From a virus, in the IMG/VR virus record IMGVR_UViG_3300028840_006907, positions 64,001-128,000 of that record: a stretch of 64,000 bases of DNA; one strand, written 5' to 3'. This document shows positions 6,924 to 54,689 of this stretch, piece by piece. Each line of letters opens with the position of its first letter. Within the stretch, counting starts at the first letter, position 1. A program made the translations under genes and the position numbers. The notes under the pieces were generated by a model. That model made no database searches, was not told where the DNA came from, and saw only the letters and a program-made list of their open reading frames with translations.

Positions 6924-7682
6924 TTGGAGACATCTGTGAAGTATAGCGTACTTGTACCCTACTATAAACGCCTAGGGCACCTACATAATACCTTTATTTC
7001 CTTTCTACACCATTATTCAGATAGAAATGATTATGAGGTTGTCATAGCAGAAGATTATAAAAATGTCCAGAATAAAAAAGACCATGACGGTCTATCAGAA
7101 ACCATTGAGAAATTCCGTGAAAAAATACCGATAATTCATTTAACTCTTTCTATGGAAACCTGGAATCCAGCTCATGGTTTTAATGAAGCTGCAAAGTGGG
7201 CTTCTGGTGAATATTTCGTTGTAACCAATCCAGAATGTTTCCATCAAGTGAACATACTGGCTGGACTCGATAAAGAATTTGAAGAAGACCCCAATGTCTA
7301 TGTTGTATGTGGTTGTATGAATTATGTCCGTTGTAATTTTTTTATTAAAAACTTTAATGATCTAAATGGAAAATTTCAGAGATGGTACCAACACTCAATA
7401 CATAGAGCAGCCCACTATCATTTCTGTTCAGCTATTTCAAAACAGAATTGGGTAAAAATAGGAGGATTCGATGAAGACTTTGCTATGGGTATAGCCTATG
7501 ATGATGTCGATTTTAAATTAAGCATTCAAAAAGCCAAGATACCCTTTCATATCCGGGATGACCTTCTTACTATACATATTGACCATGGTTCCTTCCCATC
7601 TCCTCCAAATGCTCAGAAATTAGTTAATCGAAATAGAATCACCTATCAAAGAAAATGGGAAGGAAGTAATGAATCTTACTAG
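6924..7682 (+). CDS. putative glycosyltransferase-like protein
   Basis: 252-aa ORF with non-ATG start (TTG 6924 or GTG 6936); weak GT-A-like features only. Confidence 0.35.
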   Translation: METSVKYSVLVPYYKRLGHLHNTFISFLHHYSDRNDYEVVIAEDYKNVQNKKDHDGLSETIEKFREKIPIIHLTLSMETWNPAHGFNEAAKWASGEYFVVTNPECFHQVNILAGLDKEFEEDPNVYVVCGCMNYVRCNFFIKNFNDLNGKFQRWYQHSIHRAAHYHFCSAISKQNWVKIGGFDEDFAMGIAYDDVDFKLSIQKAKIPFHIRDDLLTIHIDHGSFPSPPNAQKLVNRNRITYQRKWEGSNESY

Positions 7683-9762
7683 TTATACCGCAGCCGACAG
7701 TATCCCGATAAAATTGATTAAGAACTTTAAATTGTTAAAGTCCATGACAACAAAAGGAGTCATCTTACCAATCCATGTCCAGTTCATACCCACAAATAGA
7801 TGTAACATGAAATGTGGATTTTGTAGCTGTGCTGAAGATGACAGAAAAACAGAAATGTCCCTTAAAAATGCTAAGAAGATCATCAGAAAATTAAAAAAAC
7901 TCGGTACTCAATCCGTAACCATCACCGGAGGAGGAGAACCACTCCTTTATCCTCATCTCCAAGAATTGTTTTCTCTGTTTAAAGATGCCGGGATAAAAAT
8001 CGGTTTTGTTACCAATGGCCTCTTATTAGGTAAATGTACCTATGAAGATGTAACCTGGTGTCGGATTTCTAATTCTGATGAAAGAAAAATGGACATGGAC
8101 TATTATCACACAATAGCTTATGCTGTTGAAGATAACCCAAACGTGGACTGGGCCTTTAGTCATGTCGTTTCTCCAAAACCAAATATCTCCGAAATAAAAC
8201 GGATCATAGAATTTGCCAATCTCCATGATTTTACCCATGTCCGATTAGTAGCTGATCTATTGAATTATAAAGAAGTAGATTTAATGCAGTTAAAAATCAC
8301 TCTTCGAGATGAAAATGTCGATGATGATAAAGTCATCTATCAAAGTAGAAATACCCCGCTCAGAGGCGGAGACTGTTATATATGCTATCTTAAACCCATG
8401 ATAGGGGCTGACTGTAATGTGTACGCTTGTTGTTTAGAGGCTAATGAACCTGTATTAATCCAGAGAAATAACGAAAGGATGTATTTATCTATAAAGGATG
8501 TTGTTCCAGGGGATTATGCTTGTGAATATGGAAAGATTTTAAATGTGTTTCATAAAGAGGGTGAAGAAGGCTTGGAAATAGTTTTGCAAAATAATAGGAC
8601 TATTTATGTTTCGAAAGATCATCTTATGCTTAAATTGACAAACCCTGAAATTAGACATAAGAGAAAGAAGTTATTATCTGACTATGAATTAGATACAATA
8701 GAATCTTCTGAATTAAGAATTGGAGATTTACTTCCGGTCAAATATAAATATGATATTAGTGAAATAAAAGAAGATACTATATCTGAAGAAGAAGCAGAAT
8801 TAATAGGATATTATGTAGCTGAAGGTTGGTCCAATGAACGAACTTGTATAGTTGATAAAAAATATCCTACTAGAACTACCACTATAGGATTTATGCTAGG
8901 GAAAGAGTCAAGAGAATATATAAGAAGATTTGAAGAAATTTGTGATATTTTGAATCTAAATTTTTCTATGACTGAACGTAGAACTGGTATGCAGTATCAG
9001 ATAGGTGCACATAAACCCTACGATGACTTAATTGTACACTGTGGTAATAAAGCAGAATTAAAAAAGATCCCTCCTTTTATTTTAAACGGCTCTGATAAAA
9101 TAAAGTGGAAATTTATTCAAGGCTATTTTGGAGGTGACGGGAATTTTCAAACTCCTTCTAAAAGCTATGATGGTTTTAAAATGAGAATGAGTACTGTCAG
9201 TAGACAACTAGCTAATGATATAATTTATCTCTTTTGTACTTTAAATATTCATGCTTCTATGAGAGTTGAGAGACGTGAAGGAAAAATGATAATAGAAGGA
9301 AGAGAGGTAAATGCTAAAGATCGGTATCATATAAATATAGGGGGAGCCTATAATTTAGAAAAAGCCCCATTCCTAAATGTAATTCAAACAAAAGAAAGAA
9401 GTCCTAAAAGAGCCCTCGGTTTTTTGAAAGATGAGGATAAGGGCATTATGTTTGTACCAGTTAAAGAGATCAGAGAGAAAAAGTTAGGAAAATTAGTAGA
9501 CATTCAAGTGGAAGGTTCAAATAAATTTATATCTTCATTTGGTATAATAGTTCATAATTGTGGCGTCCAGTATGCTCTTAAAAAGCCTTCAAAGAATCTT
9601 CCTAAGAAACTGAGCCTAGGAAGTGCTTTTGATCTTGAGAAGATAATTGAGAACAGTAATAAGCCCCTGGACGGGAGCATGTGTTATCGATGCTATTATA
9701 GTAATTATAACAAGATACTAGGATCCATCCTGGATGATACCGATCATATGGAGTTTGTATGA
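7669..9762 (+). CDS. radical SAM protein interrupted by an intein
   Basis: CNMKCGFC (CxxxCxxC) Fe-S motif near N-terminus; about 376-aa insertion with intein hallmarks. Confidence 0.7.
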   Translation: MNLTSYTAADSIPIKLIKNFKLLKSMTTKGVILPIHVQFIPTNRCNMKCGFCSCAEDDRKTEMSLKNAKKIIRKLKKLGTQSVTITGGGEPLLYPHLQELFSLFKDAGIKIGFVTNGLLLGKCTYEDVTWCRISNSDERKMDMDYYHTIAYAVEDNPNVDWAFSHVVSPKPNISEIKRIIEFANLHDFTHVRLVADLLNYKEVDLMQLKITLRDENVDDDKVIYQSRNTPLRGGDCYICYLKPMIGADCNVYACCLEANEPVLIQRNNERMYLSIKDVVPGDYACEYGKILNVFHKEGEEGLEIVLQNNRTIYVSKDHLMLKLTNPEIRHKRKKLLSDYELDTIESSELRIGDLLPVKYKYDISEIKEDTISEEEAELIGYYVAEGWSNERTCIVDKKYPTRTTTIGFMLGKESREYIRRFEEICDILNLNFSMTERRTGMQYQIGAHKPYDDLIVHCGNKAELKKIPPFILNGSDKIKWKFIQGYFGGDGNFQTPSKSYDGFKMRMSTVSRQLANDIIYLFCTLNIHASMRVERREGKMIIEGREVNAKDRYHINIGGAYNLEKAPFLNVIQTKERSPKRALGFLKDEDKGIMFVPVKEIREKKLGKLVDIQVEGSNKFISSFGIIVHNCGVQYALKKPSKNLPKKLSLGSAFDLEKIIENSNKPLDGSMCYRCYYSNYNKILGSILDDTDHMEFV
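8431..9558 (+). mobile_element. intein with LAGLIDADG-type homing endonuclease domain
   Basis: Starts with Cys (CLEANEP), block-B-like SKDH, LAGLIDADG-like LIGYYVAEGW and FIQGYFGGDGNF, ends IIVHN followed by Cys. Confidence 0.6.
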
Positions 9763-10310
9763 TCCGTTATAAAGAGATCTATGAACGAGTATTTGACATA
9801 CCTCATTATTCCAGAAACCAAGACCGAAAGATTACCTGTTCCCAAGTACATAACTATTTAATAGGAACTGAAAAATCTATCATTGATATAGGATCGGGGC
9901 GTGGGCCTGTTCTTATAGAACTGCTGAATCATTTTCAGAGATCTCAGATATTGTCTTGTGATTTAAAAAAGTTCCATGATATTGAAGTCCCGTTCCTGAA
10001 ACTGGATTTAACTGAGTTCAAGGATCGGGAAGCAATATTGAGGGTCTTTCCACAGTTTGATTTCTTAACCTGTTTTGATGTCCTGGAACATATCGAGCGA
10101 CAGGAATTGCACGCTATTCTCAGATTCTTTAAAGAGCTATCTAAAAAACATCTAATTATTGTAGCAAATCACTCTGATAACTGGGGCCAGGAATTACATT
10201 TAATACAGGAGCCCATGGACTGGTGGGAGGAAAGTTTTGGTGAATATTTTAAGATATTGGATAAAAAGAGTATTCATAATGATAGAGCGTATGTATTCCA
10301 TTTAGAATGA
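9759..10310 (+). CDS. class I SAM-dependent methyltransferase
   Basis: Gly-rich motif I IIDIGSGRGPV and FDVLEHI-type motif. Confidence 0.5.
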   Translation: MIRYKEIYERVFDIPHYSRNQDRKITCSQVHNYLIGTEKSIIDIGSGRGPVLIELLNHFQRSQILSCDLKKFHDIEVPFLKLDLTEFKDREAILRVFPQFDFLTCFDVLEHIERQELHAILRFFKELSKKHLIIVANHSDNWGQELHLIQEPMDWWEESFGEYFKILDKKSIHNDRAYVFHLE

Positions 10311-10976: not shown

Positions 10977-11540
10977 TTATAGGGATTTATTTGCGTGTGG
11001 AAAAGGTTTAACCACAATTTCTCGATCCAGGAACTTGCACAATGTTGCATATTTATTTTTATCTTCAATATCTATGAGTAGGAATCGGGGTTTGTCTTTG
11101 AAGAACTCTATGATTTCTTCATTCCTCTTATGGTATCGATCTATTATTTCAGCTTTGTTCTCTGGAATAAATTCAATCTTCCATATCCAGTTATACATGA
11201 CTTGTGCATTTTTTAATTGAATCCAATTTAAAACTGAGTTAAACCATTTCTCGGGATCCCGGGTCAAATGAATGAAGTAGGCATCGGGGAACATATCATA
11301 GAGCATTTCATGACTCCCTTCTAAATTGAAAGGGATATCACAAAATAAATTGGCTGTATATTTTCTTAATCGAAAAGCTTTAAAAAGTTGAATCATATTT
11401 TCTTTGGAATGTTTAAGTCCACCTCCAAGATAGAGTCCATATGCTTTAGTAGAGGGAATAGGGTTGAAACCAAGCTTTTTTATGGCTTGTTCCATAGAGG
11501 TTGTACCGGTTTTATTTGAGCCTATACAAAAGACTTTCAT
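10977..11540 (-). CDS. sulfotransferase-family protein
   Basis: N-terminal GSNKTGTTS P-loop-like motif typical of sulfotransferases. Confidence 0.45.
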   Translation of the reverse strand: MKVFCIGSNKTGTTSMEQAIKKLGFNPIPSTKAYGLYLGGGLKHSKENMIQLFKAFRLRKYTANLFCDIPFNLEGSHEMLYDMFPDAYFIHLTRDPEKWFNSVLNWIQLKNAQVMYNWIWKIEFIPENKAEIIDRYHKRNEEIIEFFKDKPRFLLIDIEDKNKYATLCKFLDREIVVKPFPHANKSL

Positions 11541-11983: not shown

Positions 11984-12019
11984 TCTAGGAATGTAAAGTA
12001 TTAGAGGATTATTAAGGGG

Positions 12020-15018
12020 AGGGAAACCCCGCTCAGATGCAGGGAAGAAGATTTCATTAAGAAGTTTTAGGAAGAGCCCCGCAGAGGAGGAACCTCGCAA
12101 GATGCGGGGAAAAGGAACTTCAGGCAATTGGCTGGGATTAGCCCCGCGAAGGTGCGGGGAAAACAGTTTCCATGAACTATATTAGGGAGAGCCCCGTTGA
12201 CACGGGGAAAAACCCGTCTTTACTTAGTGAGATCGAGGAAGGAACAGCCCCGTTGATACGGGGATAAAATAATATGACTTTTACGAATCCTCTAGGGACA
12301 GCCCTGCAGAGTGCAGGGAAAAGTAACGTCTGGGAATTGTTTAGGATTAGCCCCGCGAAGGTGCGGGGAAAGCCATAGATTTTATATTGACACAGGAAAA
12401 ACCCCGGTATAGTCCGGGGAAAAGTACGTAATCAAGATGTAAGAGGATTAGACCCGGCGAGTCCGGGAAAAGATTGGCCCAATCACTATTAAGTAGGGTG
12501 GGATAGCCCCGCAGAATGCAGGGAATAGATGCCTCACTTCATACCACTGCGTCAACCCCAGTAGAGTCCGGGGAACATGAGTGTAAATCTCTGTCGTAGG
12601 TTCAACCCCGGAGAGATCCAGGGGAAATGGGTACAACTTTGTGTACAAGGGGTAGCCCCGGAGAAATCCGAGGAAAATGAGTGTAAATCTGTGTTGAGGG
12701 TCCAGCCCCGCTCAGTGCAGGGAATATTAAGGGTCAAAACCGGTTGCCCCTGCGTCAACCCCGGTGAAGTCCGGGGAACATGAGTGTAAATCTCTGTGGT
12801 AGGATCAACCCCGCAGAGTGCAGGGAAAAATTGAACTTTTTAATCAACCCTGTAACAGCCCCGGAGTCAGTTTTGACAAGTCCGGGGGAATATCACTTCG
12901 TAAAGGAGTGGCTGTCAAGGGGGCAACCCCACAGAGATGTGGGGGAAAGTAAGCCAACGTTCCGGCATAGGCATAGCCCCTGAATTTACAGAGGGCAATT
13001 TTTCCAGTGTCCAGAAGAAGATGCAGGGAGAACCCCGGAAAGTCCAGGGGAAAATGTGTCACAGAACAACTCTTTGTGATCTCCAGGGTGAACCTCGCAG
13101 AGGTGCGGGGGAAAAGTGTCAATGAATACCAGTATGAGTCAGCCCCGGTATAGCCCGGGAATAATTACTTCTAGTCTGATAGAAGGTGCAACCCCGGGAA
13201 GTCCGGGGAAATCGGTCATAGCCATCTGGACCAGGAAGAACCCCGGTGAGATCCGGGGAAAAGGACGTTTAAATCCTGACATAGTAGCTAACTGAGGCGT
13301 AGCTCCGGTCGGGTCAGCCCTGCAGAGAGCAGGGAACAAACATAGGTAATAAATCGGCACGTGACAGCCCCGCAGAGAGGCGGGGATATATAGCGTGAGT
13401 TGCAGGGTAAGGTTCAACCCTTGTTTACCAAGGGAAAAATACCGGCAGATAAGAATTTAGGATGACCCCCGGTGAAAGTCCGGGGAAAATAATTAATACG
13501 CAAAACAGCAGGGCCAGTCCCGCGAGATGCAGGGAATGTTCAGCCAGTTTGTGTAATATTTCAGGAGACGGTGGTGCAACCCTGTCAAGGACAGGGATAT
13601 GCAACATCTGTGGCTCTACGAGGATCAGCCCCGGCAAGTCCGGGGAATTATCTTTTTATAAATGCCAAAAATAACAGTTGGGAGGGGCCAATTCCGCTGA
13701 TGCAGAAAGACATTTCATAATTAATATATTTATGGAAGAGCCCCGGTGAAATCCGGGGAAGTCAAGTAATTACAGCTCGCTGACCACTGGGGGTAGCCCC
13801 GGTAAGATCCGGGGAAAAGTTTGTTTTGAAACAAACGCTAGGAACAGCCCCGCTCAGGTGCGGGAGAATCACTGCATATTTGGTTAATGGCCCCCCTGAG
13901 TCAATCCCGCTCAGGTGCGGGGAAAATAAAGAGATAGACTAATTCAATATGCAGGAAGAACCCCGCTATATGCAGGAAAATTTAAAAAGTATGGATATCT
14001 CCTTGAGTCAACCCCGGAGATCCAGGGAAATGTAGGCACTCGTTGTCCTTTGTCGAAGTGTGAAGGGCAAACCTCGTTGATACGAGGAACAAATTTAGTT
14101 TTACTTTTGAATAAAAGTGGTCAAGCCCCGCTCAGGTGCAGGGAATAGATAAGTATACCGACGATAGCCAGGACAGCACCTGTGGTTTAGCCCTGCATGT
14201 GCAGGGAATAGTTGAGTTGAAGATTGAAGAAAAAGATAAAGTAGGGTCAGCTCTGCATGTGCAGAGAATAGCCTTTCTTCAAGCGTTGACTTGGGAGTAG
14301 GTGGGGATCAGCCCTGCACATGCAGGGAATAGAATGGTGAATCAAATTCCATTTTGTCAAAGAACGGCGACAGCCCTGCCAGTGCAGGGAATATGATTTT
14401 AACGATGGTAAAATTGGGAAGGGGTCAGCCCTGCACATGCAGGGAATAGTCGCTAGTTCAAATCCAATCGCCCCGACAGGATCAGCCCTGCATACGCAGG
14501 GAATAGAAAATACTGACGATAAACTAGCGATATGGGATCAGCCCTGCATACGCAGGGATATAGCTTGACGAATGGCCGTTTTAATGCCAGGAGTAACCCC
14601 GCTGCGAGGAATAGTCATTTCAAATATATAGGTAAAGCCCCGCGAAAGAGCGGGGGTATAATATGGCGGATTTTGTTCTATTGGTGGAATCCGGGCCATC
14701 CCCGTAGATTGACACGGGGAGATCTTTTAGAAATCTACCAAGGTGCCTTTCCGGAGTCATCCCCGTATATACGGGGGAGATTTCAATTCAGGGAATTTCG
14801 GTACAAAATTGGTCGGTTTATCCCCGTATACACGGGGAATATTGTTTCAATAGGGCATAGCAGATCTAGGATCGGGGAATCCCCGCAGGGGCGGGGAACA
14901 TCTCGGATTTATTAATCAAATTCAAACGTTTTTCGGGGAATCCCCGCAGGGGCGGGGAACATTGTTTTAAGAGGTGGTAGTTACCTCGTAGGGGAATCCC
15001 CGCAGGGGCGGGGAACAT
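12020..15018 (-). CRISPR. CRISPR array 1: about 55 hairpin repeat units, three identical leader-proximal repeats, progressively divergent distal repeats
   Basis: Leader-proximal repeat (minus strand) ATGTTCCCCGCCCCTGCGGGGATTCCCC at 14874-14901, 14935-14962, 14991-15018 with 33- and 28-nt spacers; periodic CCCCGC/GCGGGG-type hairpins back to about 12020. Confidence 0.8.
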
Positions 15019-15127
15019 ACTAAGTCATAATGCCATTCAAATCAAAGGTTTATAGGAACCCTAATTTTCTACCAAAGAAAAATGTACTTGTCATGTATAA
15101 ATGTCAAAGAGCGTCAGAGAGAAATCC
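15019..15127 (-). promoter_or_regulatory. CRISPR leader 1 with conserved ~50-bp block shared with leader 2
   Basis: 15058-15112 nearly identical to 22627-22677; contains TTGACA on the minus strand. Confidence 0.5.
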
Positions 15128-17359
15128 CTAGTGGATATACCGAATCCATTCATATCGAATTTTCATCGTTTTATAAGGAGCTTTTTTTCTCCCTGGAAAT
15201 ATGTTTCCTTCAAAAAGGAAAAATTTTTGAACAATTTTAAATTCAGCGTTTGATGGTGTCAAGCTCTGTGGTGCATAATCCGAACGCCAGTAATTATTAC
15301 AATATATAAATTTTTCTTCTCTGTCTTTTTGTATAAGGCCCGGAAACACCACTAAAACTATCTTTTCGTTTTCAATAACAATATCCCCTTGATAAATAGC
15401 TATTTCTAAATCCAGACCATCCTGCTCTATCACACGAGCATATTTCGAGAGTTTCCCATCAATCTTTACTTTAGCTTTAGGGGGAATATCAAAAGTTATC
15501 CATTCACCTTTTATGTCCTTAATGCTTTGAATAGGTTTTTTAACTGGAATTTCTTGAAAGACATGATCTTGGTATTCTGCTTTTTTAAGGATTTCTCCAT
15601 CTTTTTCCATATTAAGCAATAAAGCCTTTTCCATGATGTCTTTAAGTTCATAGAGATCTTTTTCAGTTAAGGGCTCTTTTGTTCCGAATACGATGGAACC
15701 TACATTCTCTAATCGAGCGATTTTATCAAAACCCTGTTTCCGGACAAAGTCTATGGTAATATGTTCTATTTTTCTATTTCTTGAAAGTCTTATGATTCTT
15801 ACAAATTCAGTTTTAATTGTGTCTTTGAAATTATCAAAACTTAAATGATCTTCTACGTAGGGATGATACAAATCCGCTATAAGACTTAATAAAATTTCTA
15901 TGTCTTCAGGTTTATCCTGTTTACGGTTGTAATCATAAGCTTTAATAATTTCTTGTCTCATTTCCATTAATATATCAGGAGCCATTATTTCACTTAAACT
16001 GGTAGATCCTTTTTTGTCCCGATAAAAGGGAGCTGTTGGAAGTAAGGGAATCCTGATAGCAGCACAAAGTTCTGACATTACAATTGAGGTTAAGAACAAA
16101 TTCAATCTGTCTGAATATAATGCCCTGATATTATTACGTTCTTCTTTTTTAATAGGTGGAACATAAATGTATAACCATATTTTATCTTTTTTAGGGTAAC
16201 ATCTGAAAATACGAAACATTATTTGAGAGAAGGTCACCTGACTCTTTCCATAACTTGTATTATGTAAAACAGCAGCAGGAGGCCAATCATACCCTTCATA
16301 GAATATTCTGCAAGATACGGCGACCCAGTATTTTTTATGATTACGTCTCAATAACTCTCTATTTTTTTTCTGAGTTTCCGGTGTGACTAAATCCAGTACT
16401 TTGGACGCAGGATATATTTCGTGAATAGCTTTTAAATATTTTTTAAGGGTTCCTTCCTCTCTGAACCGGTTCCCCATGTCAGGTAATATGACAATGTGTC
16501 TTTGATCTTTGTGCTCTTTCATATATCTAATGATCTGAGTAAGGGGATCTTTCCTATAGTGAGTGAAACGGAAATTGAATTCTTTGATTTTTATGATTGA
16601 GAGATAGTCATTTAATGGGATAACCCATTTTTCAAAATGATGTTTATAAGCATTGGGGACTATTTCTCCTCTGTCTGTGCGGTGGTAAGTAGCTGTATAA
16701 AAATTTACGTTACAAGTAGGTTCATGGATGGTACATACATCTCTGACAAAATCACCCAAATGAGTGGAATCTAGTGGGGTTGATTTTGAATGATGGCATT
16801 CATCTACATGTACAGTTAAATTTCTAAGGGCTTTCTTTTTTTCATAGTTGGTTAATTTTTCCCAGGTCATGACAAACCCTCTATGGGTAGCTGTAGCAAT
16901 AGGGCCTGTTATATGTTTTTCATTGTACGGGTATTTTCGAGGATCTGCTAAAAGGAATTCTTTAAGTCCTTTAATGGATTGAGGGTTTTCACTATTGAAT
17001 TTATGTTCTTTTGGTACTTCCCACAATCTTACCATACCTTTATATTTGATTTTTATTTGTCTATTTTGGGATCTGCAGAAATTTTCACCTATTTCTATTG
17101 TTGGTGCGATAAAGATATGTTTTCGAGTATTTTTAGATATTATGATTTCATCCAGGGATATGCATACTGCTAAAAAAGTTTTGCCGACTCCCCCTGGTGC
17201 ATCAAAGATCATGTATCTGAATTTTTTCCCATATTCTTTTGCATTGCATTGCCAGCCAGAGGGTATCATGATCCCTGATTCAAGTTTTTTATTATAGGTA
17301 CCAAGGTCAACCGGTTCTATTTTAATAGATTGCTGGAAAAGCGGTAATAGCTTTTTCAT
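15128..17359 (-). CDS. SF2 helicase, Cas3-like helicase module without HD nuclease domain
   Basis: Walker A DAPGGVGKT and DECHH box; in-frame stop 18 codons upstream excludes an N-terminal extension; no HD dipeptide. Confidence 0.6.
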   Translation of the reverse strand: MKKLLPLFQQSIKIEPVDLGTYNKKLESGIMIPSGWQCNAKEYGKKFRYMIFDAPGGVGKTFLAVCISLDEIIISKNTRKHIFIAPTIEIGENFCRSQNRQIKIKYKGMVRLWEVPKEHKFNSENPQSIKGLKEFLLADPRKYPYNEKHITGPIATATHRGFVMTWEKLTNYEKKKALRNLTVHVDECHHSKSTPLDSTHLGDFVRDVCTIHEPTCNVNFYTATYHRTDRGEIVPNAYKHHFEKWVIPLNDYLSIIKIKEFNFRFTHYRKDPLTQIIRYMKEHKDQRHIVILPDMGNRFREEGTLKKYLKAIHEIYPASKVLDLVTPETQKKNRELLRRNHKKYWVAVSCRIFYEGYDWPPAAVLHNTSYGKSQVTFSQIMFRIFRCYPKKDKIWLYIYVPPIKKEERNNIRALYSDRLNLFLTSIVMSELCAAIRIPLLPTAPFYRDKKGSTSLSEIMAPDILMEMRQEIIKAYDYNRKQDKPEDIEILLSLIADLYHPYVEDHLSFDNFKDTIKTEFVRIIRLSRNRKIEHITIDFVRKQGFDKIARLENVGSIVFGTKEPLTEKDLYELKDIMEKALLLNMEKDGEILKKAEYQDHVFQEIPVKKPIQSIKDIKGEWITFDIPPKAKVKIDGKLSKYARVIEQDGLDLEIAIYQGDIVIENEKIVLVVFPGLIQKDREEKFIYCNNYWRSDYAPQSLTPSNAEFKIVQKFFLFEGNIFPGRKKAPYKTMKIRYEWIRYIH

Positions 17360-17628: not shown

Positions 17629-18273
17629 TTAATAAGATTTATACGGTGCAATAAGCATCATACCACATCCGAAACCTTTACTCTTACCAATTCCATTATA
17701 AATAGTATTCACAAAAAGATTTTTATTGACTACCTGAAGGACTCCTCGTAAATCAATACTGAAAAAAGATACAACTTTACCATCTTTTTTTTTGAATTTA
17801 CAGAATTGAAAAGATTGAACGGAATGCTTTTGAATCATATTTTTAAAACCGTAACTTTGGCCACGTTTCTGAAGCCAATTCTTTGAGGATTCGTGAGCAA
17901 TGAAATTCCAATTATAGGGTTCATCAAGAACTTTCATTTCATTTGCCAGATCCGTCATGATTGAAACCTTTTTCCTGGTTTTCAATTTACAAACTTCGGC
18001 ATTGAGTCTGAGATCGTATTGAAGAAATATTCCAGATTTTAAATTATTTAAATCGAATACTTTTGTTTGTGTAGTGTATTCGTCCTCTGGAGGATTTGGT
18101 TTCTTTTTTGATATGATATAAAGTTCACCATTATAGAGATAATAAAGGAAATCTCTTACCCTGTTAGATCTTTGATCACCAAAAAATTCCCAGACTTTTT
18201 GATGAAGCTCATATATACCTTCGGTGGGAGAATATCTTCTCAAGCTGTCACTGTAAATTTTACTCAGAAACAT
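17629..18273 (-). CDS. cas6e: Cas6e (CasE) endoribonuclease
   Basis: Start set at internal Met (GGAGG RBS); MFLSKIY N-terminus and C-terminal GIGKSKGFGCGMM resemble E. coli CasE. Confidence 0.75.
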   Translation of the reverse strand: MFLSKIYSDSLRRYSPTEGIYELHQKVWEFFGDQRSNRVRDFLYYLYNGELYIISKKKPNPPEDEYTTQTKVFDLNNLKSGIFLQYDLRLNAEVCKLKTRKKVSIMTDLANEMKVLDEPYNWNFIAHESSKNWLQKRGQSYGFKNMIQKHSVQSFQFCKFKKKDGKVVSFFSIDLRGVLQVVNKNLFVNTIYNGIGKSKGFGCGMMLIAPYKSY

Positions 18274-18910
18274 TCGATACCTCCTTCCATCCCATATACT
18301 CAATTCGGGATCGGTATTGTTTGGGACCGGTTACCTGATCAAAACGTTGATTGCTTTTTACTATTTTGATACTGGTATCGGTACCTTCCCAAAATATTCG
18401 GTTCTTTTCACGCCCTTTAAGACTACCATTAAGAAATTCAGGAAGAGAGTACTGTTCAAACGCCTCTGAGAGGCTCTCAGCCTTAACGATCTTAGGATCG
18501 GGTGGTATGTCATAGGAACAGCATTTCCTTCCAAGAAAGGGGGTATAGATGGGCCTATTAAGGGCTTCCATTATTTTCTTCAAAGTATAGGGACAGTTTT
18601 CATTCTCCCATATACATACGGTAAAGATGGCATTGACTAGGTAAAATCTATTCGAGACAATTCCTGGTCCGACTCTGACAATATGGAAATCTTTTAGAAT
18701 AGTACCAGGATTATCTTCCCTACAGGCAAATCCTAGTTGGGCAATCTGAGTTAATTCTTTCACCATTTCTCTTGAGACTCCAAGAGAAGCAGCGATTAAC
18801 CCGCTTACGCCAGATTTGGTAGGGTGATCATCTGTCTTTCGGGTATTACCCTGAAGGGGGAGACCCCAGGCGGATAGAGTACCCGAAAGAAGGAATAATA
18901 AATAATTCAT
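18260..18910 (-). CDS. cas5e: Cas5e (CasD)
   Basis: MNYLLFLLSGTLSAWG and YTPFLGRK resemble E. coli CasD MRSYLILRLAGPMQAWG and YTPYLGRR. Confidence 0.8.
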   Translation of the reverse strand: MNYLLFLLSGTLSAWGLPLQGNTRKTDDHPTKSGVSGLIAASLGVSREMVKELTQIAQLGFACREDNPGTILKDFHIVRVGPGIVSNRFYLVNAIFTVCIWENENCPYTLKKIMEALNRPIYTPFLGRKCCSYDIPPDPKIVKAESLSEAFEQYSLPEFLNGSLKGREKNRIFWEGTDTSIKIVKSNQRFDQVTGPKQYRSRIEYMGWKEVSNVSE

Positions 18911-18933: not shown

Positions 18934-20019
18934 TTAGAAATCGATGAATTTAATAAGTTCGTTAAGTGATCCTTCTTTTGTGAGTACATTCAAGATCCTA
19001 TAATCCATTTCATGGTAACATGAATCAAAACTACTTTTCATGTCAAGAAGGGCTTTGACAGCATTTTCCATAACCGCAGGACCTTTAATAGGAGTATGGA
19101 AGGCTTGACAGAGACTTCGTGGGGCAGTTGGAGCTTTTTCGATCATAACGAATGCTGGCCATGTTTGACTATCAGCACATCTGTTTTTATTAGCTGAGGG
19201 GGATGAAGTGGTTAATACTTCGACTATCTGTCGGATGGTTTTGATAGCTAGTTCTTTATTACCTTGAAGATTTTTCGTTAAGAGCTTGGAATTGATTACA
19301 AAGAAACTATAATAGACACCCTGGGTAAAATAGAAATTATCTAGGTGACCTGAACCTTTGGTTCCTTCTAATCCAAGGTTATCGGTAGCTGTAAAATAGT
19401 CGGTTTGGACAGATCCTATATCATTGACAGTAAAAGCGAAATTTGAGGACAGTGAAGCTTCAACATCATATTGGGGCAGTTTTGCAATCATGCGACCGGT
19501 AAGGGCTGTTCTGATTCCTGTATTTTCTTTTAAAAAGAAGAATTCTTGATCAGTGGGTTTATGCCCCTCAATAATTTTGTCAATCAGTTCTTCAATATGT
19601 TGTCTTTCGCTCGGTTGAATTTTAATGGTTTCGGTTTTAAGAAGATCAACCTTTTTTTTCTTTTTCTTTGTATTTTTATCATCTTCTTTTTCAGTGTGCT
19701 TTTTGATATCAACAAAAGTACCAATAAATTTAAATGCGTATTCTTCAGCTTTTTTAGGTGATATTCCACCATCAATTAATCTTTTCTCGACATATTTTCC
19801 AATAAGAGGAGTCTGAAGACCTATATCGATTTCGCACCTTTCAAATAGAGCCTTGTTTAAATCATATTTTCGATTTTGTGAAGACGAATAACCTCGGTTG
19901 GTATCATTAAGTTTCATTGTTTTAGGACGTCCGTCCTGGCCTCGGTTTATGCTAGATACAGCTACACCAGTGAGAAGGTGAATTAACCAGTAGGGGTCTT
20001 TAATAATAGTTTTAGACAT
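18934..20019 (-). CDS. cas7e: Cas7e (CasC) backbone subunit
   Basis: 361 aa; N-terminal SSINRGQDG...SSQ pattern like Cas7e SxLNRDD...SSQ. Confidence 0.75.
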   Translation of the reverse strand: MSKTIIKDPYWLIHLLTGVAVSSINRGQDGRPKTMKLNDTNRGYSSSQNRKYDLNKALFERCEIDIGLQTPLIGKYVEKRLIDGGISPKKAEEYAFKFIGTFVDIKKHTEKEDDKNTKKKKKKVDLLKTETIKIQPSERQHIEELIDKIIEGHKPTDQEFFFLKENTGIRTALTGRMIAKLPQYDVEASLSSNFAFTVNDIGSVQTDYFTATDNLGLEGTKGSGHLDNFYFTQGVYYSFFVINSKLLTKNLQGNKELAIKTIRQIVEVLTTSSPSANKNRCADSQTWPAFVMIEKAPTAPRSLCQAFHTPIKGPAVMENAVKALLDMKSSFDSCYHEMDYRILNVLTKEGSLNELIKFIDF

Positions 20020-20045: not shown

Positions 20046-21989
20046 TTATATGTTATTTGAATATTCTCTTTCCCAGTAGAACTTGACATCTTTGCTCCAG
20101 TGGGCATACCCTTCCATGAAACTGATGATGTTAAATCCTTCCATTCGAGAAACAACATCAGCAAATACTTTCCAGTTTTTTTGTATATCCGTTTTATTGA
20201 AACTCATCATTTCGTCAACATGTCGGCGGTTAATTTTTTGAGAACCCATTTGGGCACCGAAAGATTGAGAAAAATCCAGATCCTTAGCTTTAAAAACAAT
20301 TAGTAGAAGAGGTACGAAAAGAGTCTTCATATCTTCTGATCTTAAAGCAGGGAAATGCATAGACATTTCTAAAATAAAATTCAAATAAAGGTCTTCATGT
20401 TTTAAGATATCGATGTCAAAACATCGGGTAAATACCCTATGTTTTTCTGTATTTCTAATAGTCCCGTACCAGGACAGGAATGGTTTGGTAAAGACCTGGT
20501 TAAAATGAGGTAGGTTTAATTTCCTGTATTCGATATGGGCGAAATTCTCATATTCTAATGGTTGTAGTTTAAGAGGTTTAACAACTTTTTTATTTAAGGT
20601 TTCGATAAATTGTTCCTTAAAATATTTCTGTAAACCTCTCTTTTCAGTACCTACATTTTTTTCAAATGTATCGAAAGCTTTAACTACCATCTTTTCCAAC
20701 CATTTTTCGATATTATGATTCTTGAGAACTTCATAGAAGTATTCTTCAGTTTCTGTCAGAAATTCGTGAAATATTAAAGGTTCGGTTTTATCAGTTCCCC
20801 AGAACTTTCTTATATAATTACAGGTATACCATCCTATAAGATATGAGTGTTCTCTGATATTTAAAGTAAACGCACTATCTTTATAGAGTTCTTCTGGGAT
20901 ATCGAATTTATTTTCCTCCCATCCAAAGAGTTTGGCTTTAGCCATATTATAACCGAAAGTCCATAATCCGAAATCAGTTATTCCAAGATATTCTCGGTTC
21001 TCCATGAAATGACTCACCACTAAAGCTGGAGTTAATTTTTTAGCTGGTAGTAGATAGGTCACAAGATCGAGATGGCTGGTAAAGTCCAGGGGTTTCCGGA
21101 AACCTGTTTCTTTGCCTTTTATAATGGGTGAAAGGATATGACGTGGTTTGACATAACAGTTACCATAATTCCTCGTTTTTATCTTTCTAACCATTAATTT
21201 GGAATGATTGCCACAGATAGTACATGATTCATCAAATTTATCAAAGATAAGATGAATACGTAGAGGCATTTCCCAGAGCGGGTAATAAGGATTCATCTCA
21301 TCCAGGGAAACAGTAGCTTTGTTTTTACTATCAACGGTATCACTAAGCCATGGGAGTGTTACACCTTTTGGATTTCCTCCGAATTCAAACATGGTCTTTT
21401 TAATAATAACATTAGACCATATTGTTTCCCATAACGTGGAACCGGTAATAATAGTGGTAAGAGAACCATTGGCACCGGCTGTTATCGAAGTACGGTATCC
21501 TTGGCCTCCCATAATGGCACTGAGTTGATTAAGATAAAGGGCAATTGTAGCACAGGATTGGCAAAAAGTATGTATCTTTGCTTTTTGGAAGAAATCTTTA
21601 CCAGCTTTAATTGTCGCTGTCCCTGGAGTATCAAAGAGGAGATTACCAACATTTACGATTCTTTCAAGGTCCTGTGGCCGTTTATCCTGTAAAAAACGAG
21701 GACCTTTGCCATCTAGTTCAAAGAGTTTTGGTTTAAGTTTTTCTAGGATGGCTTTTTGGTTTGGTGCTTTTTTGAATAGTTTTTTCCATTCTTTCTTACT
21801 TGTAGGAGCAAGATAAGTGTTGAAAAAACCTATGAGAAGCCGTACACCTACAGCATTGAAATCGGGTCTACCGAAATCGAGAGCTATTATAGGGTTATTA
21901 GGTTTTGAAGTTATTTTGTAGGGTGGAATGTTTTCCCTGGTACCGTCTTTTCGGATGACGGGGATCCAAGGGTCCTTAATTACATTCAT
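20046..21989 (-). CDS. cas8e: Cas8e (Cse1) large subunit with about 145-aa C-terminal extension
   Basis: MNVIKDPWIPV and CQSCATIALY match Cse1 DNWIPV and CGGCTAIALF; GGAGGT RBS. Confidence 0.8.
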   Translation of the reverse strand: MNVIKDPWIPVIRKDGTRENIPPYKITSKPNNPIIALDFGRPDFNAVGVRLLIGFFNTYLAPTSKKEWKKLFKKAPNQKAILEKLKPKLFELDGKGPRFLQDKRPQDLERIVNVGNLLFDTPGTATIKAGKDFFQKAKIHTFCQSCATIALYLNQLSAIMGGQGYRTSITAGANGSLTTIITGSTLWETIWSNVIIKKTMFEFGGNPKGVTLPWLSDTVDSKNKATVSLDEMNPYYPLWEMPLRIHLIFDKFDESCTICGNHSKLMVRKIKTRNYGNCYVKPRHILSPIIKGKETGFRKPLDFTSHLDLVTYLLPAKKLTPALVVSHFMENREYLGITDFGLWTFGYNMAKAKLFGWEENKFDIPEELYKDSAFTLNIREHSYLIGWYTCNYIRKFWGTDKTEPLIFHEFLTETEEYFYEVLKNHNIEKWLEKMVVKAFDTFEKNVGTEKRGLQKYFKEQFIETLNKKVVKPLKLQPLEYENFAHIEYRKLNLPHFNQVFTKPFLSWYGTIRNTEKHRVFTRCFDIDILKHEDLYLNFILEMSMHFPALRSEDMKTLFVPLLLIVFKAKDLDFSQSFGAQMGSQKINRRHVDEMMSFNKTDIQKNWKVFADVVSRMEGFNIISFMEGYAHWSKDVKFYWEREYSNNI

Positions 21990-22586: not shown

Positions 22587-22690
22587 ACTATAATATAATT
22601 AGTTGAAAATCAGAGAGTTACAAAGACCCTAATTTTCTACCAAAAAAAGTACTTGCCGTTTATAAATGTCAAAGAGCTTATCTTTAAAGG
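22587..22690 (-). promoter_or_regulatory. CRISPR leader 2
   Basis: 22627-22677 nearly identical to the array-1 leader block. Confidence 0.5.
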
Positions 22691-31316: not shown

Positions 31317-32270
31317 TTATTCCTTAAAATAAAATTTAGATTTTAAATTATCGTAAGCACTCCAATTACCTTCAATAATACGATTAGTATATATAGTACT
31401 TAGATTGTATTCAGAGTCGATTATATCAGCTTTAGATAAAAGTATAGCTTCAGGAGTCATCGGGACTACTGCAGCCCCTAAATCCAGAGAACCGTGATGA
31501 CTTAATATTAAATGACCTAATATTTTTTTCATTCGGTTTCTTTCTTCCGGAGGAGCTTCTAATGCGTTTATGATTGGTATAATATTAGTATAACTTAAAT
31601 TGAGATGACTATGCAATCGTCCTATATCAGTCATTTCAATAGTCAAGTCATATGTATAGGAAAACATTTTTCCGTGATCATGAAGAAAAGCTCCCATGCA
31701 AATGATAGAAGGATCTATTGGATAAATATAACAGAAAGAGGAACAGATCTTCGTTACACATAAAGTATGCTCTAATAGACCGTGTAGATAAGCGTGATGG
31801 ACGTTACCCTTTCCTCCAGGGCACATTTTAAATTTATGCACAAATGTTTCATTATTTTTAAATTTATCCCAGAGATCTCTCATATATTTATTTTTAACTT
31901 TATCATCCATTATTTGAACTAGTTCAACCCACATTTCATCGGGATCATGTGGTGAAGTAGGAAGGAAATCTACAGGATTATAAGGATTTGTTTCTTCAAT
32001 TGAAGATACAATGATTTGATTCTGACCTTGATATACATTAACTTTCCCTTGAATACGACAAACTTTAGCATTTTTAACTATTTCGTAATAAGTATCTGCA
32101 TGATTGAAAGCGGTTGCTGCTATCTGTCCTTTTTTATCTCTCAACTCAAAAGTTAGAAAATTACCTTTTGAAGCGTTTTTGAATGGTCTTAGTGAAGCGT
32201 CTGCTATAACGAAGATTCCATCTATATCTGTTCCACTACTCAATGTTAATATATCTGCTGTGTTTACCAT
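31317..32270 (-). CDS. OB-fold plus HD-domain nuclease (YhaM-like)
   Basis: HHAYLHGLLEHT and FLHDHGK HD-domain motifs after an OB-fold-like N-terminus. Confidence 0.55.
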   Translation of the reverse strand: MVNTADILTLSSGTDIDGIFVIADASLRPFKNASKGNFLTFELRDKKGQIAATAFNHADTYYEIVKNAKVCRIQGKVNVYQGQNQIIVSSIEETNPYNPVDFLPTSPHDPDEMWVELVQIMDDKVKNKYMRDLWDKFKNNETFVHKFKMCPGGKGNVHHAYLHGLLEHTLCVTKICSSFCYIYPIDPSIICMGAFLHDHGKMFSYTYDLTIEMTDIGRLHSHLNLSYTNIIPIINALEAPPEERNRMKKILGHLILSHHGSLDLGAAVVPMTPEAILLSKADIIDSEYNLSTIYTNRIIEGNWSAYDNLKSKFYFKE

Positions 32271-34425: not shown

Positions 34426-34502
34426 TGGTACCCCAATCAGGACTCTAACCTGAAATCTTTGGCTCCGGAAACCAACGCTTTATACAATTAAGCTATTGGG
34501 GC
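34426..34502 (-). tRNA. tRNA-Arg (anticodon CCG), CCA encoded
   Basis: Hand-folded cloverleaf: GCCCCAA/TTGGGGT acceptor, loop TTCCGGA, atypical T-loop. Confidence 0.5.
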
Positions 34503-34511
34503 ATTATAAGA

Positions 34512-34586
34512 TGGCGGTGCGTAAGGGAATCGAACCCTTGCCAGGAGATCGACAGTCTCCGGTCCTAACCACTGAACGAACGCACC
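34512..34586 (-). tRNA. tRNA-Asp (anticodon GTC), CCA encoded
   Basis: GGTGCGT/ACGCACC acceptor, loop CTGTCGA, T-arm GGTTCGATTCC. Confidence 0.7.
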
Positions 34587-34595
34587 GTATTTTTA

Positions 34596-34760
34596 TTAAT
34601 CAATTTTTTTATTTCCGATAAAAAGACCGCAGTCGCATTGCCGAGCCATTTTCGTTTTATTCTTTATTACAATGCCTATTGCTTTAATAGGCTTTTTACA
34701 AGTGTTGCAAATATTTTGCTGTGTCTTTTTGTCATGCTGTTTCACTGCTGTTTTAGCCAT
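34596..34760 (-). CDS. micro zinc-ribbon protein (54 aa)
   Basis: Hand-translated MAKTAVKQHDKK...CNTCKK...CDCG; AAGGAG RBS. Confidence 0.35.
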   Translation of the reverse strand: MAKTAVKQHDKKTQQNICNTCKKPIKAIGIVIKNKTKMARQCDCGLFIGNKKID

Positions 34761-34782
34761 TACTTGTACTCCTTAAATGTTA

Positions 34783-34856
34783 TGGCAGGGACGGTCAGAT
34801 TCGAACTGACATCGCCGGTTTTGGAGACCGGGTGCTTGACCGTTAGCGACGCCCCT
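34783..34856 (-). tRNA. tRNA-Trp (anticodon CCA), CCA encoded
   Basis: Loop CTCCAAA, T-arm GTCAG TTCGAAT CTGAC. Confidence 0.65.
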
Positions 34857-34871
34857 GTATTGACAAATTTT

Positions 34872-35045
34872 TCATGATTTGAACCATTCACTACAACCTT
34901 CGGCTAGTTCTAATAAATGAACACAAGGTTTTGTTTCTTTTGCCAGAACACAGCCACACACTGTACAAATTACCACAGCAGGTTTCAAATCATGTTTCTC
35001 AATTTCAGCGAATGCTTTCACTATATCATTCACTATATCATTCAT
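34872..35045 (-). CDS. micro Cys-rich protein (57 aa)
   Basis: Hand-translated MNDIVNDIVKAF...CTVCGC... Confidence 0.3.
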   Translation of the reverse strand: MNDIVNDIVKAFAEIEKHDLKPAVVICTVCGCVLAKETKPCVHLLELAEGCSEWFKS

Positions 35046-35062
35046 TTTTTCTCCGAATTATC

Positions 35063-35135
35063 TGGGCGCAGACGGACTTGAACCGCCCACGAATGGCTTA
35101 TGAGACCACTACTCTACCGACTGAGTTATACGCCC
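35063..35135 (-). tRNA. tRNA-Met (anticodon CAT)
   Basis: GGGCGTA acceptor, loop CTCATAA, T-loop TTCAAGT; no CCA. Confidence 0.65.
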
Positions 35136-35143
35136 TTGACTTA

Positions 35144-35221
35144 TGGCACACCCGGCACGATTTGAACGTGCGACTTCTTCGTTCGTGGCGAAGATCTCTA
35201 TCCGGACTGAGTTACGGGTGC
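35144..35221 (-). tRNA. tRNA-Arg (anticodon ACG), CCA encoded
   Basis: Loop CCACGAA, T-arm CACG TTCAAAT CGTG. Confidence 0.6.
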
Positions 35222-35227
35222 GTATTT

Positions 35228-35728
35228 TTATAAAAAAGTTTTATACGTTTTTTTATTAATGATATATGATAATGTTGATTTTGCTGATTTATATTCCTTT
35301 GCTAATTTATTTAAACTTTCTCCATTTTTATTTCTGTTAATTATAGATTCTATCTCTTTTTTTGTGAATTTTCTTAATTTATACGCAGCTTTAACTGCTT
35401 GCTCTTTTCTTTCTTTTTCAGGTATATCAAATGAATTCTCTGATCTTGTACCAATTGATATATTAGAATCATTGAAATTTAATCTATTTCTATCTAAGTG
35501 TCTAGTCTCAATCCCTTCTTCAAAAACTTTATCCCCAAATAAAAAGTATGCTTTTAATTTATGTACTTTTAAATTTTTAATCTTTTTGTTTACATAGATA
35601 TTTATGGTAGGGTAACCTTTTGAATAATGGAATCTTAAAGGTTTTCCCATTGGCCCAATAACTTCATTTTTATCATTAAAATGATATCCTTTTTTTACAG
35701 CTATTTTTAAGACATCATTATTTTTCAT
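35228..35728 (-). CDS. HNH-family homing endonuclease
   Basis: Phage HNH-like GYHFNDKNEVIGPMGKPLRFH block and C-terminal helix-turn-helix; sits inside the tRNA cluster. Confidence 0.5.
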   Translation of the reverse strand: MKNNDVLKIAVKKGYHFNDKNEVIGPMGKPLRFHYSKGYPTINIYVNKKIKNLKVHKLKAYFLFGDKVFEEGIETRHLDRNRLNFNDSNISIGTRSENSFDIPEKERKEQAVKAAYKLRKFTKKEIESIINRNKNGESLNKLAKEYKSAKSTLSYIINKKTYKTFL

Positions 35729-35748
35729 ATATTAATTTTTCTTTCTAA

Positions 35749-35821
35749 TAGGGGTACGGGGAGTCGAACCCCGGTCGTGGGAGAGAAAATCCCATATCCT
35801 AAGCCATTAGAAGATACCCCC
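35749..35821 (-). tRNA. tRNA, anticodon probably TTC (Glu), atypical position 37
   Basis: GGGGGTA acceptor, T-arm CGGGG TTCGACT CCCCG, loop TTTTCTC. Confidence 0.5.
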
Positions 35822-47800: not shown

Positions 47801-47872
47801 TGGTATACACAACTTAAAGAGCGGTCCTTCATGTTAACGTAGGTAATTTTCTCTGTAAGTTGTTGATTTATA

Positions 47873-54683: not shown

Positions 54684-54689
54684 AAATGG

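Follow-up and report, generated by a model that had tools for sequence, protein, structure and literature searches.

A phage type I-E variant CRISPR array of 55 mostly diverged repeats with conserved hairpins and spacers shared among related lineages

A phage locus and its closest described counterparts

Clustered regularly interspaced short palindromic repeat (CRISPR) arrays are usually seen as fast-renewed memories with identical repeats. The subject of this report is array 1, a set of 55 hairpin units and one half unit on the minus strand of a 64,000-nucleotide stretch of huge-phage DNA (positions 64,001 to 128,000 of IMG/VR virus record IMGVR_UViG_3300028840_006907; this whole stretch is called the window, and its first letter is position 1), which lies next to genes for Cas8e, Cas7e, Cas5e and Cas6e. 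Its repeats differ from unit to unit while the hairpin is kept by paired changes in both arms of the stem, its spacers fall into length classes, and one spacer family recurs in related phages and matches codons of a tyrosine-recombinase motif. The reading that we favor, with a probability of roughly 0.65, is that array 1 is a static, vertically inherited library of CRISPR RNAs (crRNAs) belonging to a phage type I-E variant, and that it has been kept processable by selection.

With canonical type I-E arrays, such as CRISPR-I of E. coli K-12 and CRISPR4 of S. thermophilus, the locus shares a unit made of ~5 nt, a GC-rich stem of 6-7 bp, a short loop and an 8-nt handle with U2, C6 and C7, as well as an upstream leader, adjacent genes for Cas8e, Cas7e, Cas5e and Cas6e, and a period of 61 nt near the leader. 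It departs from them in that its repeats are ~65-70% identical, most spacers are ~20 or 26 nt instead of 32-33 nt, no Cas1/Cas2, HD-Cas3 or separate Cas11 gene was found, and no turnover was seen between samples. Among phage-borne systems, a type I-C variant of huge phages is without Cas1, Cas2 and Cas4, and a helicase takes the place of its Cas3 (Al-Shayeb et al. 2020, PMC7162821); the CRISPR systems of huge phages have been proposed to target host genes or competing phages, possibly through repression without cleavage, and their arrays are compact, with a median of 6 repeats (PMC7162821). The locus resembles these in its setting of tRNA and transfer-messenger RNA (tmRNA) genes, in the helicase that takes the place of Cas3, and in that no adaptation genes were found, but it has 55 units, and neither hairpin-preserving heterogeneous repeats, nor 20-nt spacers, nor a clade-wide guide is described in that work.

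The closest functional analogy is with the atypical-repeat homing crRNAs of Tn7-like CRISPR-associated transposons (CASTs; type I-F3b and others), in which a nuclease-less Cascade uses inherited guides with highly diverged repeats, the guides are aimed at conserved chromosomal genes, and tolerance at wobble positions is thought to be important (PMC11406308). Whereas CASTs have one or few guides and transpose by means of TniQ and TnsABC, there are ~50 units here, a helicase as partner and a phage as carrier, and no transposase was found: neither TnsA/B/C nor TniQ is encoded by the genes on either side of the cas operon, here or in relatives. CreA of CreTA illustrates that degenerate repeats can still load Cascade, that spacers can be short and that a target can be bound but left uncut (Shmakov et al. 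2023, bioRxiv 10.1101/2023.03.03.530964); CreA units, however, are single and have ~11-14-nt matches to a promoter of their own locus, whereas the present array is long and no spacer in it matches the locus. RNA anti-CRISPRs (Racrs; PMC10651486) are likewise phage-encoded RNAs resembling CRISPR repeats, but they are solitary inhibitors without cognate cas genes, which here are present along with leaders and conserved spacers. Type IV-A systems, finally, have a DinG helicase and no adaptation module and can borrow I-E Cas1/Cas2 in trans (bioRxiv 10.1101/2023.06.23.546257). They also serve conflicts between elements, and they share with our locus a Cascade-like complex paired with a helicase, a mobile carrier, and the finding of no nuclease and no Cas1/Cas2; they differ in possessing Csf effectors, homogeneous repeats and ordinary spacers, where this phage has Cas8e, Cas7e, Cas5e and Cas6e. 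A search of the literature on heterogeneous or compensatory repeats in phage arrays returned nothing equivalent, although its coverage was incomplete and it is weak evidence of novelty. What seems to be new, judging from sequence, is the combination of private compensatory repeats, spacer classes in steps of one Cas7 with a natural mode at 20 nt, and a clade-wide guide against a recombinase box.

The locus comprises the following features.

12019-15018, minus strand: CRISPR array 1, 55 hairpin units and one half unit
14874-15016, minus strand: three identical leader-proximal repeats with their spacers (GTTCCCCGCCCCTGCGGGGATTCCCC at 14991-15016, 14935-14960 and 14874-14899)
15019-15127, minus strand: leader of array 1, with CTCTTTGACATTTATA at 15096-15111 and TTTGGTAGAAAATTAGGGT at 15058-15076
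15128-17359, minus strand: superfamily 2 (SF2) helicase of 743 aa with helicase domains, in the position of Cas3
17629-18273, minus strand: Cas6e, 214 aa when counted from the Met aligned to the first residue of E. coli CasE
18260-18910, minus strand: Cas5e
18934-20019, minus strand: Cas7e
20046-21989, minus strand: Cas8e/Cse1, 647 aa
22214-22586, minus strand: CRISPR array 2, 6-7 units upstream of cas8e, the first three repeats identical (CTATTCCCCGCATACGCGGGGCTGATGC)
22587-22690, minus strand: leader of array 2, with the leader motifs at 22661-22676 and 22626-22644

Cas8e, Cas7e, Cas5e and Cas6e are all recognized by Pfam, NCBIfam and PADLOC matches (E 1e-26 to 1e-55). Cas6e keeps the catalytic His motif (YELHQKVW, compared with YQLHQGLW in E. 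coli CasE) and a glycine-rich loop, and from these residues looks active. No HD domain was detected in the helicase, whose ResIII/DEAD core starts at residue 45 and whose Cas3' score is marginal (13.8 bits); its homologues carry helicase domains only and are kept in all relatives, at 33-59% identity and always after cas6e. In two relatives (loci L012 and L020) an extra gene of ~200 aa is found between cas6e and the helicase gene. Neither cas1 nor cas2 was found within 8934-30019 or among the other larger open reading frames (ORFs) of the window that were scanned, nor within 10 kb on either side in the relative L013, nor in the available flanks of other relatives. Between cas8e and cas7e there is no gene that could be a separate cse2/cas11, and no Cse2 model was matched. 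The C-terminus of Cas8e (20046-20570) has ~175 extra helical residues past the four-helix bundle (residues 366-470), the protein being 647-660 aa long in all four family representatives. This extension may represent a Cas11, either fused or translated internally, as would be consistent with Cascades of small size; sequence searches for a fused Cas11 in it returned nothing, and its AlphaFold models are weak (predicted local distance difference test scores of 40 and 46).

The two arrays have homologous leaders, both of which contain CTCTTTGACATTTATA...AAGTAC...TTTGGTAGAAAATTAGGGT, and a part of the leader, CTCTTTGA(C/A)AT, recurs in relatives. The conserved leader includes TTGACA and a predicted promoter, which a scan with the sigma-70 consensus did not single out. 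A 293-aa protein encoded elsewhere in the window (52524-53405, minus strand) has a weak match to sigma-70 region 4 and is possibly a phage sigma factor; such a factor could account for a leader without a canonical -10 box. Scans with the leader pattern gave no match in IMG/VR and, in metagenomes, the same phage and two chance matches without arrays. The leader-proximal repeat of array 2 differs from that of array 1, and its distal units are diverged and more closely spaced.

Hairpins conserved among diverged repeats

The units of array 1 were called by a permissive hairpin scan and then by a definition anchored in the flanks (15016 down to 12019); a raw MAFFT alignment anchored the 3' arm only, and was replaced by a flank-anchored alignment in which loops were masked as N. 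The array is read on the minus strand, directly downstream of the helicase gene, and its unit has the form UU-CCCYGN-loop-NCRGGG-YUnnnCC, with a loop of 3-8 nt and in one case of 17 nt. The 55 units follow one another with a period of 49-62 nt, and, apart from one duplicated family, every spacer is unique. The region has 37 perfect hairpins of 6 bp or more, against 3.8 +/- 2.0 in dinucleotide shuffles, the mean minimum free energy of the hairpins is -10.6 kcal/mol against -3.0 for shuffled sequences, and a motif scan of both strands of the whole 64 kb gave 50 high-scoring units, all of them on the minus strand and all within arrays 1 and 2. A few units are broken, among them unit 8, which in the standard frame has a 1-nt loop, and the half unit at ~12077. 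The region is not regarded as coding, because it holds short overlapping ORFs only and the frames derived from the repeats differ between copies.

Only three repeats, those nearest to the leader, with inter-hairpin gaps of 40, 45 and 43 nt, are identical. Unit 4, ATATTCCCCGTGTATACGGGGATAAACCG, is close to the classical I-E repeat of E. coli. Identity to unit 1 falls in a single step, from 0.96 to ~0.7 after unit 3, and is flat thereafter, and mean pairwise identity over the 24 non-loop core positions is ~0.65-0.69 at all lags, hardly changing from lag 1 (0.69) to lag 30 (0.68). The array thus consists of a short homogeneous head, local blocks of related repeats (units 4-6 and 9-15) and ~40 units that are mutually saturated. 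A first-pass annotation of this DNA, made from the letters alone, had described about 55 hairpin units over 3 kb, of which only the three leader-proximal repeats are identical, and had quoted a series of plus-strand variants; the count, the three identical copies, every quoted variant, the orientation and the side of the leader all agree with what we find. The gradual divergence away from the leader that it also described is instead the step and plateau given above. Its further statement that both halves of the stem change together is upheld by the alignment, and the length classes of the spacers, a second array with a homologous leader and the guide conserved across lineages are features beyond those it had noticed.

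In the flank-anchored alignment 98.2% of the 330 stem cells are paired, leaving 6 unpaired. Changes on both sides occur at all six stem pairs and make 43 cells compensatory; no shuffle in 500 matched these values for pairing and covariation, and slid controls pair at 36-61%. At the sixth pair 30 units have C-G, 18 have G-C and 7 have U-A, none of them mismatched; mutual information is centered on the true stem partners, reaching 1.38 bits at that pair. Against this variability stand a few nearly fixed positions. The three basal pairs of this 6-bp, GC-rich stem are C-G in 89-96% of units, the two bases 5' of it are U in ~85%, and in the YUnnnCC handle U2 is present in 55 of 55 units, C7 in 54 and C6 in 46, while positions 3-5 and 8 are essentially random. 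Few fixed bases combined with a fixed shape is what one would expect of proteins that recognize the shape and a handful of bases. The stems fall into three classes, CCCCGG-AYTTYA-CCGGGG, CCCYGC-...-GCRGGG and CCCCGT-...-ACGGGG, each with a loop flavor of its own.

Spacer lengths are also structured. The canonical I-E gap from hairpin to hairpin is 45 nt, that is, an 8-nt handle, a 32-nt spacer and 5 nt. The gaps of array 1, each taken as the distance between the 3' end of a hairpin and the hairpin that follows, cluster at 32-33 nt (exactly 32 nt in 17 cases), 38-41 nt and 43-46 nt, with troughs at 35-37 and 42 nt, and those of the related locus L004 have modes at 33, 39 and 45 nt. When four arrays are pooled, a peak bin holds on average ~5 times more gaps than a trough bin. 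The Rayleigh R is 0.52-0.65 at a period of 6-6.5 nt, and in every lineage the gaps have a sharp lower limit of 31-32 nt. Spacers of ~20, 26 and 32 nt are implied, classes spaced by one Cas7 footprint; about a quarter of the gaps fit the 31-33-nt spacers of ordinary I-E arrays, and the main class is that of ~20 nt. Work in E. coli has shown that removal of 6 or 12 nt from a crRNA gives complexes with five or four Cas7 subunits (and one Cse2), and that interference persists with spacers of more than 20 nt; in nature, I-E spacers measure 31-33 nt and are rarely shorter (PMC5159557). By its spacer lengths, then, the phage would seem to use Cascades of variable size, and the 20-nt class could be either a floor reached by trimming or a native length.

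Related lineages, orthologous spacers and a recombinase motif

Searches with Cas7, Cas8e and the helicase found a small clade of phages, all with an equivalent operon, a Cas8e of ~650-660 aa and the helicase; no close relative was found by megablast in the phage collection or by Cas7 peptides in IMG/VR, and a word-index homology search with Cas6e returned Cas6e itself only. The architecture of the array recurs in five related lineages (loci L003, L004, L006, L013-L018 and L019), in various proportions of uniform and diverged units. L006 has five identical canonical repeats (gaps 44-45 nt) followed by diverged hairpins (gaps 31-38 nt), and L013-L018 have ~12 near-identical repeats and then a diverged tail. 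In L004 more than 40 units keep a constant stem with variable handles and gaps of 45, 39 and 32 nt, and L003 and L019 consist almost exclusively of diverged hairpins with short gaps and varied stems (CTCCCG/TGGGAG, TCCTTA/TAAGGA, CCCTAT/ATAGGG); 18 perfect hairpins were counted in L003, with 2.9 expected. A tRNA-like stretch in L006 was not confirmed by ARAGORN. Arrays of the L013 type are static, for six contigs from different samples have arrays of equal length, 1-2 single-nucleotide polymorphisms apart. Directly upstream of cas8e, where the window carries array 2, the more distant relatives L013 (8891-9967) and, at equivalent positions, L014-L018 encode a 358-aa protein with a faint TrmB-type helix-turn-helix match, which on that resemblance may be a regulator of the operon.

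The closest comparison is with L019, which is syntenic with the window through cas6e, the helicase gene (59% identical in protein), the array and a sulfotransferase gene that adjoins the array downstream (10977-11540, minus strand, in the window; 4839-5408 in L019). From the end of the array to the sulfotransferase gene the DNA of the two is 69% identical, a baseline for neutral-to-coding divergence. Two spacers of array 1 have orthologs in other lineages.

12830-12850, minus strand: spacer B, with handle CTGTTACA, orthologous to a unit of L019
12574-12808, minus strand: spacer A block, with copies A1 at 12781-12800, A2 at 12678-12697, A3 at 12578-12597 and the degenerate A4 at 12628-12647

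Spacer B reads GGGTTGATTAAAAAGTTCAAT in the window and GGGTTGATTAATAATTTTTACAAC in L019, and its handle is CTGTTACA in both (BLAST E 3e-7). Spacer A, whose copies form a 50-nt tandem block according to Tandem Repeats Finder (12551-12813), is present in four lineages: the window, with three copies and the degenerate fourth, L019, L003 and L006. Over its 20 nt it is identical at 14-17 positions between lineages whose Cas7 proteins are 57-65% identical, and the window and L019 do not have their orthologous units in the same order. The hairpins beside orthologous spacers fold in every lineage, but with differing stem sequences: downstream of spacer A the window has CCCCGG/CCGGGG and CCTCGG/CCGGGG, L019 and L003 have CCCCCA/TGGGGG, and L006 has CCCCCT/AGGGGG. 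It is the orthology of the spacers, and not a hairpin search, that anchors this evidence for compensatory evolution. The unit with the 17-nt loop lies nearby (12859-12887, minus strand; CCCCGG-ACTTGTCAAAACTGACT-CCGGGG), its loop being able to form a small extra stem, and the orthologous hairpins upstream of spacer A in L003 and L006 are also long-looped, at 14-15 nt; with loops of 14-17 nt in natural units, Cas6e would need to tolerate large loops. In L003 spacer A is ~32-34 nt long, while in the other lineages it ends after 20 nt plus TGTT, TTAT or AATT, a difference that fits trimming from the end distal to the protospacer-adjacent motif (PAM).

The substitutions in these spacers follow a codon pattern. 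Nine of the 12 events inferred for spacer A are at positions 3, 6, 9, 12, 15 and 18, and all nine are synonymous in frame 1 of the crRNA-sense strand, which reads T-T-E-I-Y-T-H-V, the other changes giving S or Q variants. The copies in the window encode TTEIYTHV (twice) and STQIYTHF, and that of L019 encodes TTQIYTHY. Spacer B shows four substitutions, all four at third codon positions, and an in-frame 3-nt indel. Together 13 of 16 substitution events are at third codon positions (joint P ~1e-4, with three frames allowed for), and the positions flipped out by I-E Cascade (6, 12, 18 and 24) coincide with third codon positions. The 34-nt spacer A of L003 matches a gut-derived contig at 23 of 24 nt (E 0.03), and the match falls on the codons for LGHESIATTEIYTHIDRH in a 283-aa ORF that encodes a XerC/XerD-type tyrosine recombinase (Phage_integrase 6.7e-49, with a SAM-like N-domain; E 1e-51 with E. 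coli XerD, whose motif is LGHSDLSTTQIYTHV, with TTQIYTHV). The tyrosine of this TT(E/Q)IYTH box is the catalytic nucleophile of tyrosine recombinases. Spacer A resembles the conserved guides known from CASTs, being held in four lineages and matching codons of recombinase box II, and for its target the protein motif is far more telling than the marginal nucleotide match. The motif is encoded nowhere else in the window or in the loci of relatives examined, and when the spacers were compared with Xer proteins by peptide matching spacer A alone matched. From its substitutions the family would appear to have been under long-term purifying selection and to track a conserved coding target. Being of sense sequence, the crRNA can pair with the template strand of DNA and not with mRNA. 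When 53 spacers were compared with their own 64-kb window and the loci of relatives, the best self-matches were 12-13 nt, at chance level; the absence of a match in the window argues against self-regulation. A candidate third shared spacer (TGCCGATTTATTACC at 13335-13367 of the window, TGCCGATTTATAACG at ~7384 of L004 and TTTATTACCTAT at ~17635 of L013) scores at the edge of the shuffled null and is not counted as evidence.

Interpretation, alternatives and genome setting

If array 1 is an inherited guide library, its operation can be proposed in outline. The conserved leader would drive a long precursor crRNA from the minus strand, and Cas6e would cut at the 3' base of each hairpin, giving crRNAs that each carry, besides their own hairpin, a 7-8-nt handle derived from the repeat before. 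Each crRNA would nucleate a Cascade with four, five or six Cas7 subunits, according to a spacer length of ~20, 26 or 32 nt. New units would enter rarely or never, so that repeats would not be re-homogenized and positions that Cas6e and Cas5 do not read would become saturated, while purifying selection would hold the pairing of the stem, its CCC/GGG base, the UU before it and U2, C6 and C7 of the handle. Old spacers would be trimmed at their PAM-distal end to the ~20-nt floor. The spacer A complex would bind either a host xer gene or the DNA of mobile elements that carry integrases, such as prophages, satellites and conjugative elements. With no nuclease detected, it would probably block or silence its target and not cleave it, although degradation by an unseen nuclease is conceivable. 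Unit exchange between arrays may contribute to the interleaved stem classes. By analogy with type IV-A3, homogeneous leader-proximal blocks could conceivably come from a host I-E adaptation module acting in trans. As a speculation, the lost homology between neighboring repeats might protect a non-renewable array from recombinational collapse. More broadly, we tentatively suggest, at somewhat less than even odds, that this clade of huge phages has an innate, hard-wired system in which Cascade and a nuclease-less helicase are served by dozens of long-inherited guides that track conserved coding targets by duplication and mutation, with Cascades of 4-6 Cas7, private compensatory repeats and a heterogeneity that stabilizes the library.

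Several observations weigh against this reading. It does not account for the entry of new units without cas1/cas2. The 64 kb are part of a genome of 389-470 kb, and adaptation or HD nuclease genes could sit outside them. The stem classes interleave, with ~25 switches and no unpaired intermediates, which plain drift by point mutation explains poorly. Over the half of the array nearer to the leader the 6-nt steps are blurred (gaps of 40, 41, 43, 46 and 47 nt), and the Rayleigh statistic is driven in part by single sharp peaks. Finally, the assignment of a target rests on one spacer family and a marginal nucleotide match (E 0.03) in an unrelated gut contig; the arrays of the window, L004 and L013 gave no significant matches in a cultured-phage collection, and no matches were obtained for two spacer patterns in IMG/VR or for the spacer A variants of the window in plasmids.

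Other explanations account for less of the evidence. The heterogeneity of the array could derive mainly from units or blocks captured from several donor arrays, of hosts or of co-infecting phages, a possibility also raised in the first-pass annotation. Discrete stem classes with their own loop flavors and no unpaired intermediates would suit such a mosaic, as would the local blocks of similar repeats (units 1-3, 4-6 and 9-15), the occurrence of handles of both 'ATAAACC' and 'CTGATCC' flavors, and the differing order of orthologous units in the window and L019. However, the classes alternate mostly unit by unit and not in donor-sized blocks, and since ~20-nt spacers are rare in bacterial I-E arrays (PMC5159557), donors would be confined to relatives with that same peculiarity. 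A host search with the leader-proximal repeat, moreover, gave one stray match (in Actinomyces) among one representative genome each of 185,579 species, and orthologous units keep their position class while their hairpins differ between lineages, which argues for divergence in place. On balance we consider a mosaic origin unlikely, although captured units may have contributed. That only the leader-proximal units are functional, the other ~50 being a neutral, eroding tail left after the loss of adaptation, is a view largely refuted by the covariation, and we hold it to be very improbable. Terminal repeats of ordinary arrays are known to degenerate, no cas1/cas2 was found in the window ORFs scanned, and a few units are indeed broken (the loop of unit 8, the half unit at ~12077 and the 6 of 330 unpaired cells); but neutral randomization of the kind seen in the loops and at handle positions 3-5 would destroy pairing, whereas 98% of cells are paired through compensatory changes, T2 and C7 of the handle hardly vary, 17 gaps measure exactly 32 nt, and the distal spacers A and B are 70-85% identical across lineages in which Cas7 is 57-65% identical.

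The first-pass annotation had also proposed that the hairpins act as decoys or as guides for more than one Cascade. Phages do encode repeat mimics that inhibit CRISPR systems (PMC10651486), and a variety of I-E-like repeat flavors could serve to soak up the Cas6e or Cascade of one or several hosts, in the manner of Racrs. Such RNAs are solitary and without cas genes, whereas here a complete cognate Cascade operon and a shared leader accompany the arrays; a decoy has no need of spacers conserved across lineages, of codon-patterned spacer evolution or of lengths in Cas7 steps; and apart from the stray copy mentioned, no matching repeat was found among the representatives of the 185,579 species. 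We give this explanation even less credence than neutral decay. An artifact of assembly, whether a collapse or a chimera of several arrays, has a negligible probability. Repeat arrays are hard to assemble, but the non-identity of the repeats makes this one easy, and its architecture recurs in relatives. The window is identical to the Joint Genome Institute (JGI) contig Ga0180437_10000019 (388,651 bp; locus L001), array 1 and its flanks show no mismatch between the window, a Logan contig (SRR6963591) and that JGI locus, and pieces of Ga0180438_10000010 (469,541 bp) are also identical to the window, with an overlap that reaches down to 14099 within the array; the misassembly that had been named as a possible refutation is thereby excluded. 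Of the suggestions made at first pass, it is selection for a Cas6e-cleavable hairpin amid drift of the primary sequence that gains support, from the covariation within the array, from the compensatory differences around orthologous spacers in different phages, and from the intact catalytic His of Cas6e together with invariant handle positions beside randomized ones.

An inherited library of this kind would have several implications. To our knowledge, short-spacer Cascades of reduced stoichiometry have so far been laboratory-made only; the array suggests that they occur in nature. The ~55 repeat variants, with those of five relatives, are apparently all tolerated by one Cas6e/Cas5e pair and so define what recognition needs, and this repeat-variant code could be useful in the design of non-repetitive, recombination-proof multiplex arrays. 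After the loss of adaptation a CRISPR system can apparently become a heritable set of guides against conserved genes, in parallel with the homing guides of transposons but at a much larger scale and in a virus. The guide against the recombinase motif, in turn, suggests a route for attacking integrase-bearing rivals (prophages, satellites, and integrative and conjugative elements) or the resolution of host chromosome dimers.

The remainder of the window is in keeping with a huge phage, with one tmRNA gene and ~19 tRNA genes.

47870-48282, minus strand: tmRNA, full-length (160 bits)
34429-35821 (minus strand), 53795-55325 (plus strand) and 60768-63428 (plus strand): three clusters of tRNA genes

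The only HD-domain protein noticed in the window is encoded at 31317-32270 (minus strand), 9 kb from the cas operon; it combines an OB-fold with the HD domain in a YhaM-like architecture and is probably unrelated to Cas3. Beyond array 1 and the sulfotransferase gene, a 697-aa radical S-adenosylmethionine (SAM) protein is encoded at 7669-9762 (plus strand); it has weak intein-splicing and LAGLIDADG matches in the precomputed annotation, and the gene possibly contains an intein. A methyltransferase gene follows it at 9759-10310. The set of tRNA and tmRNA genes is typical of huge phages and could aid in inferring the host.

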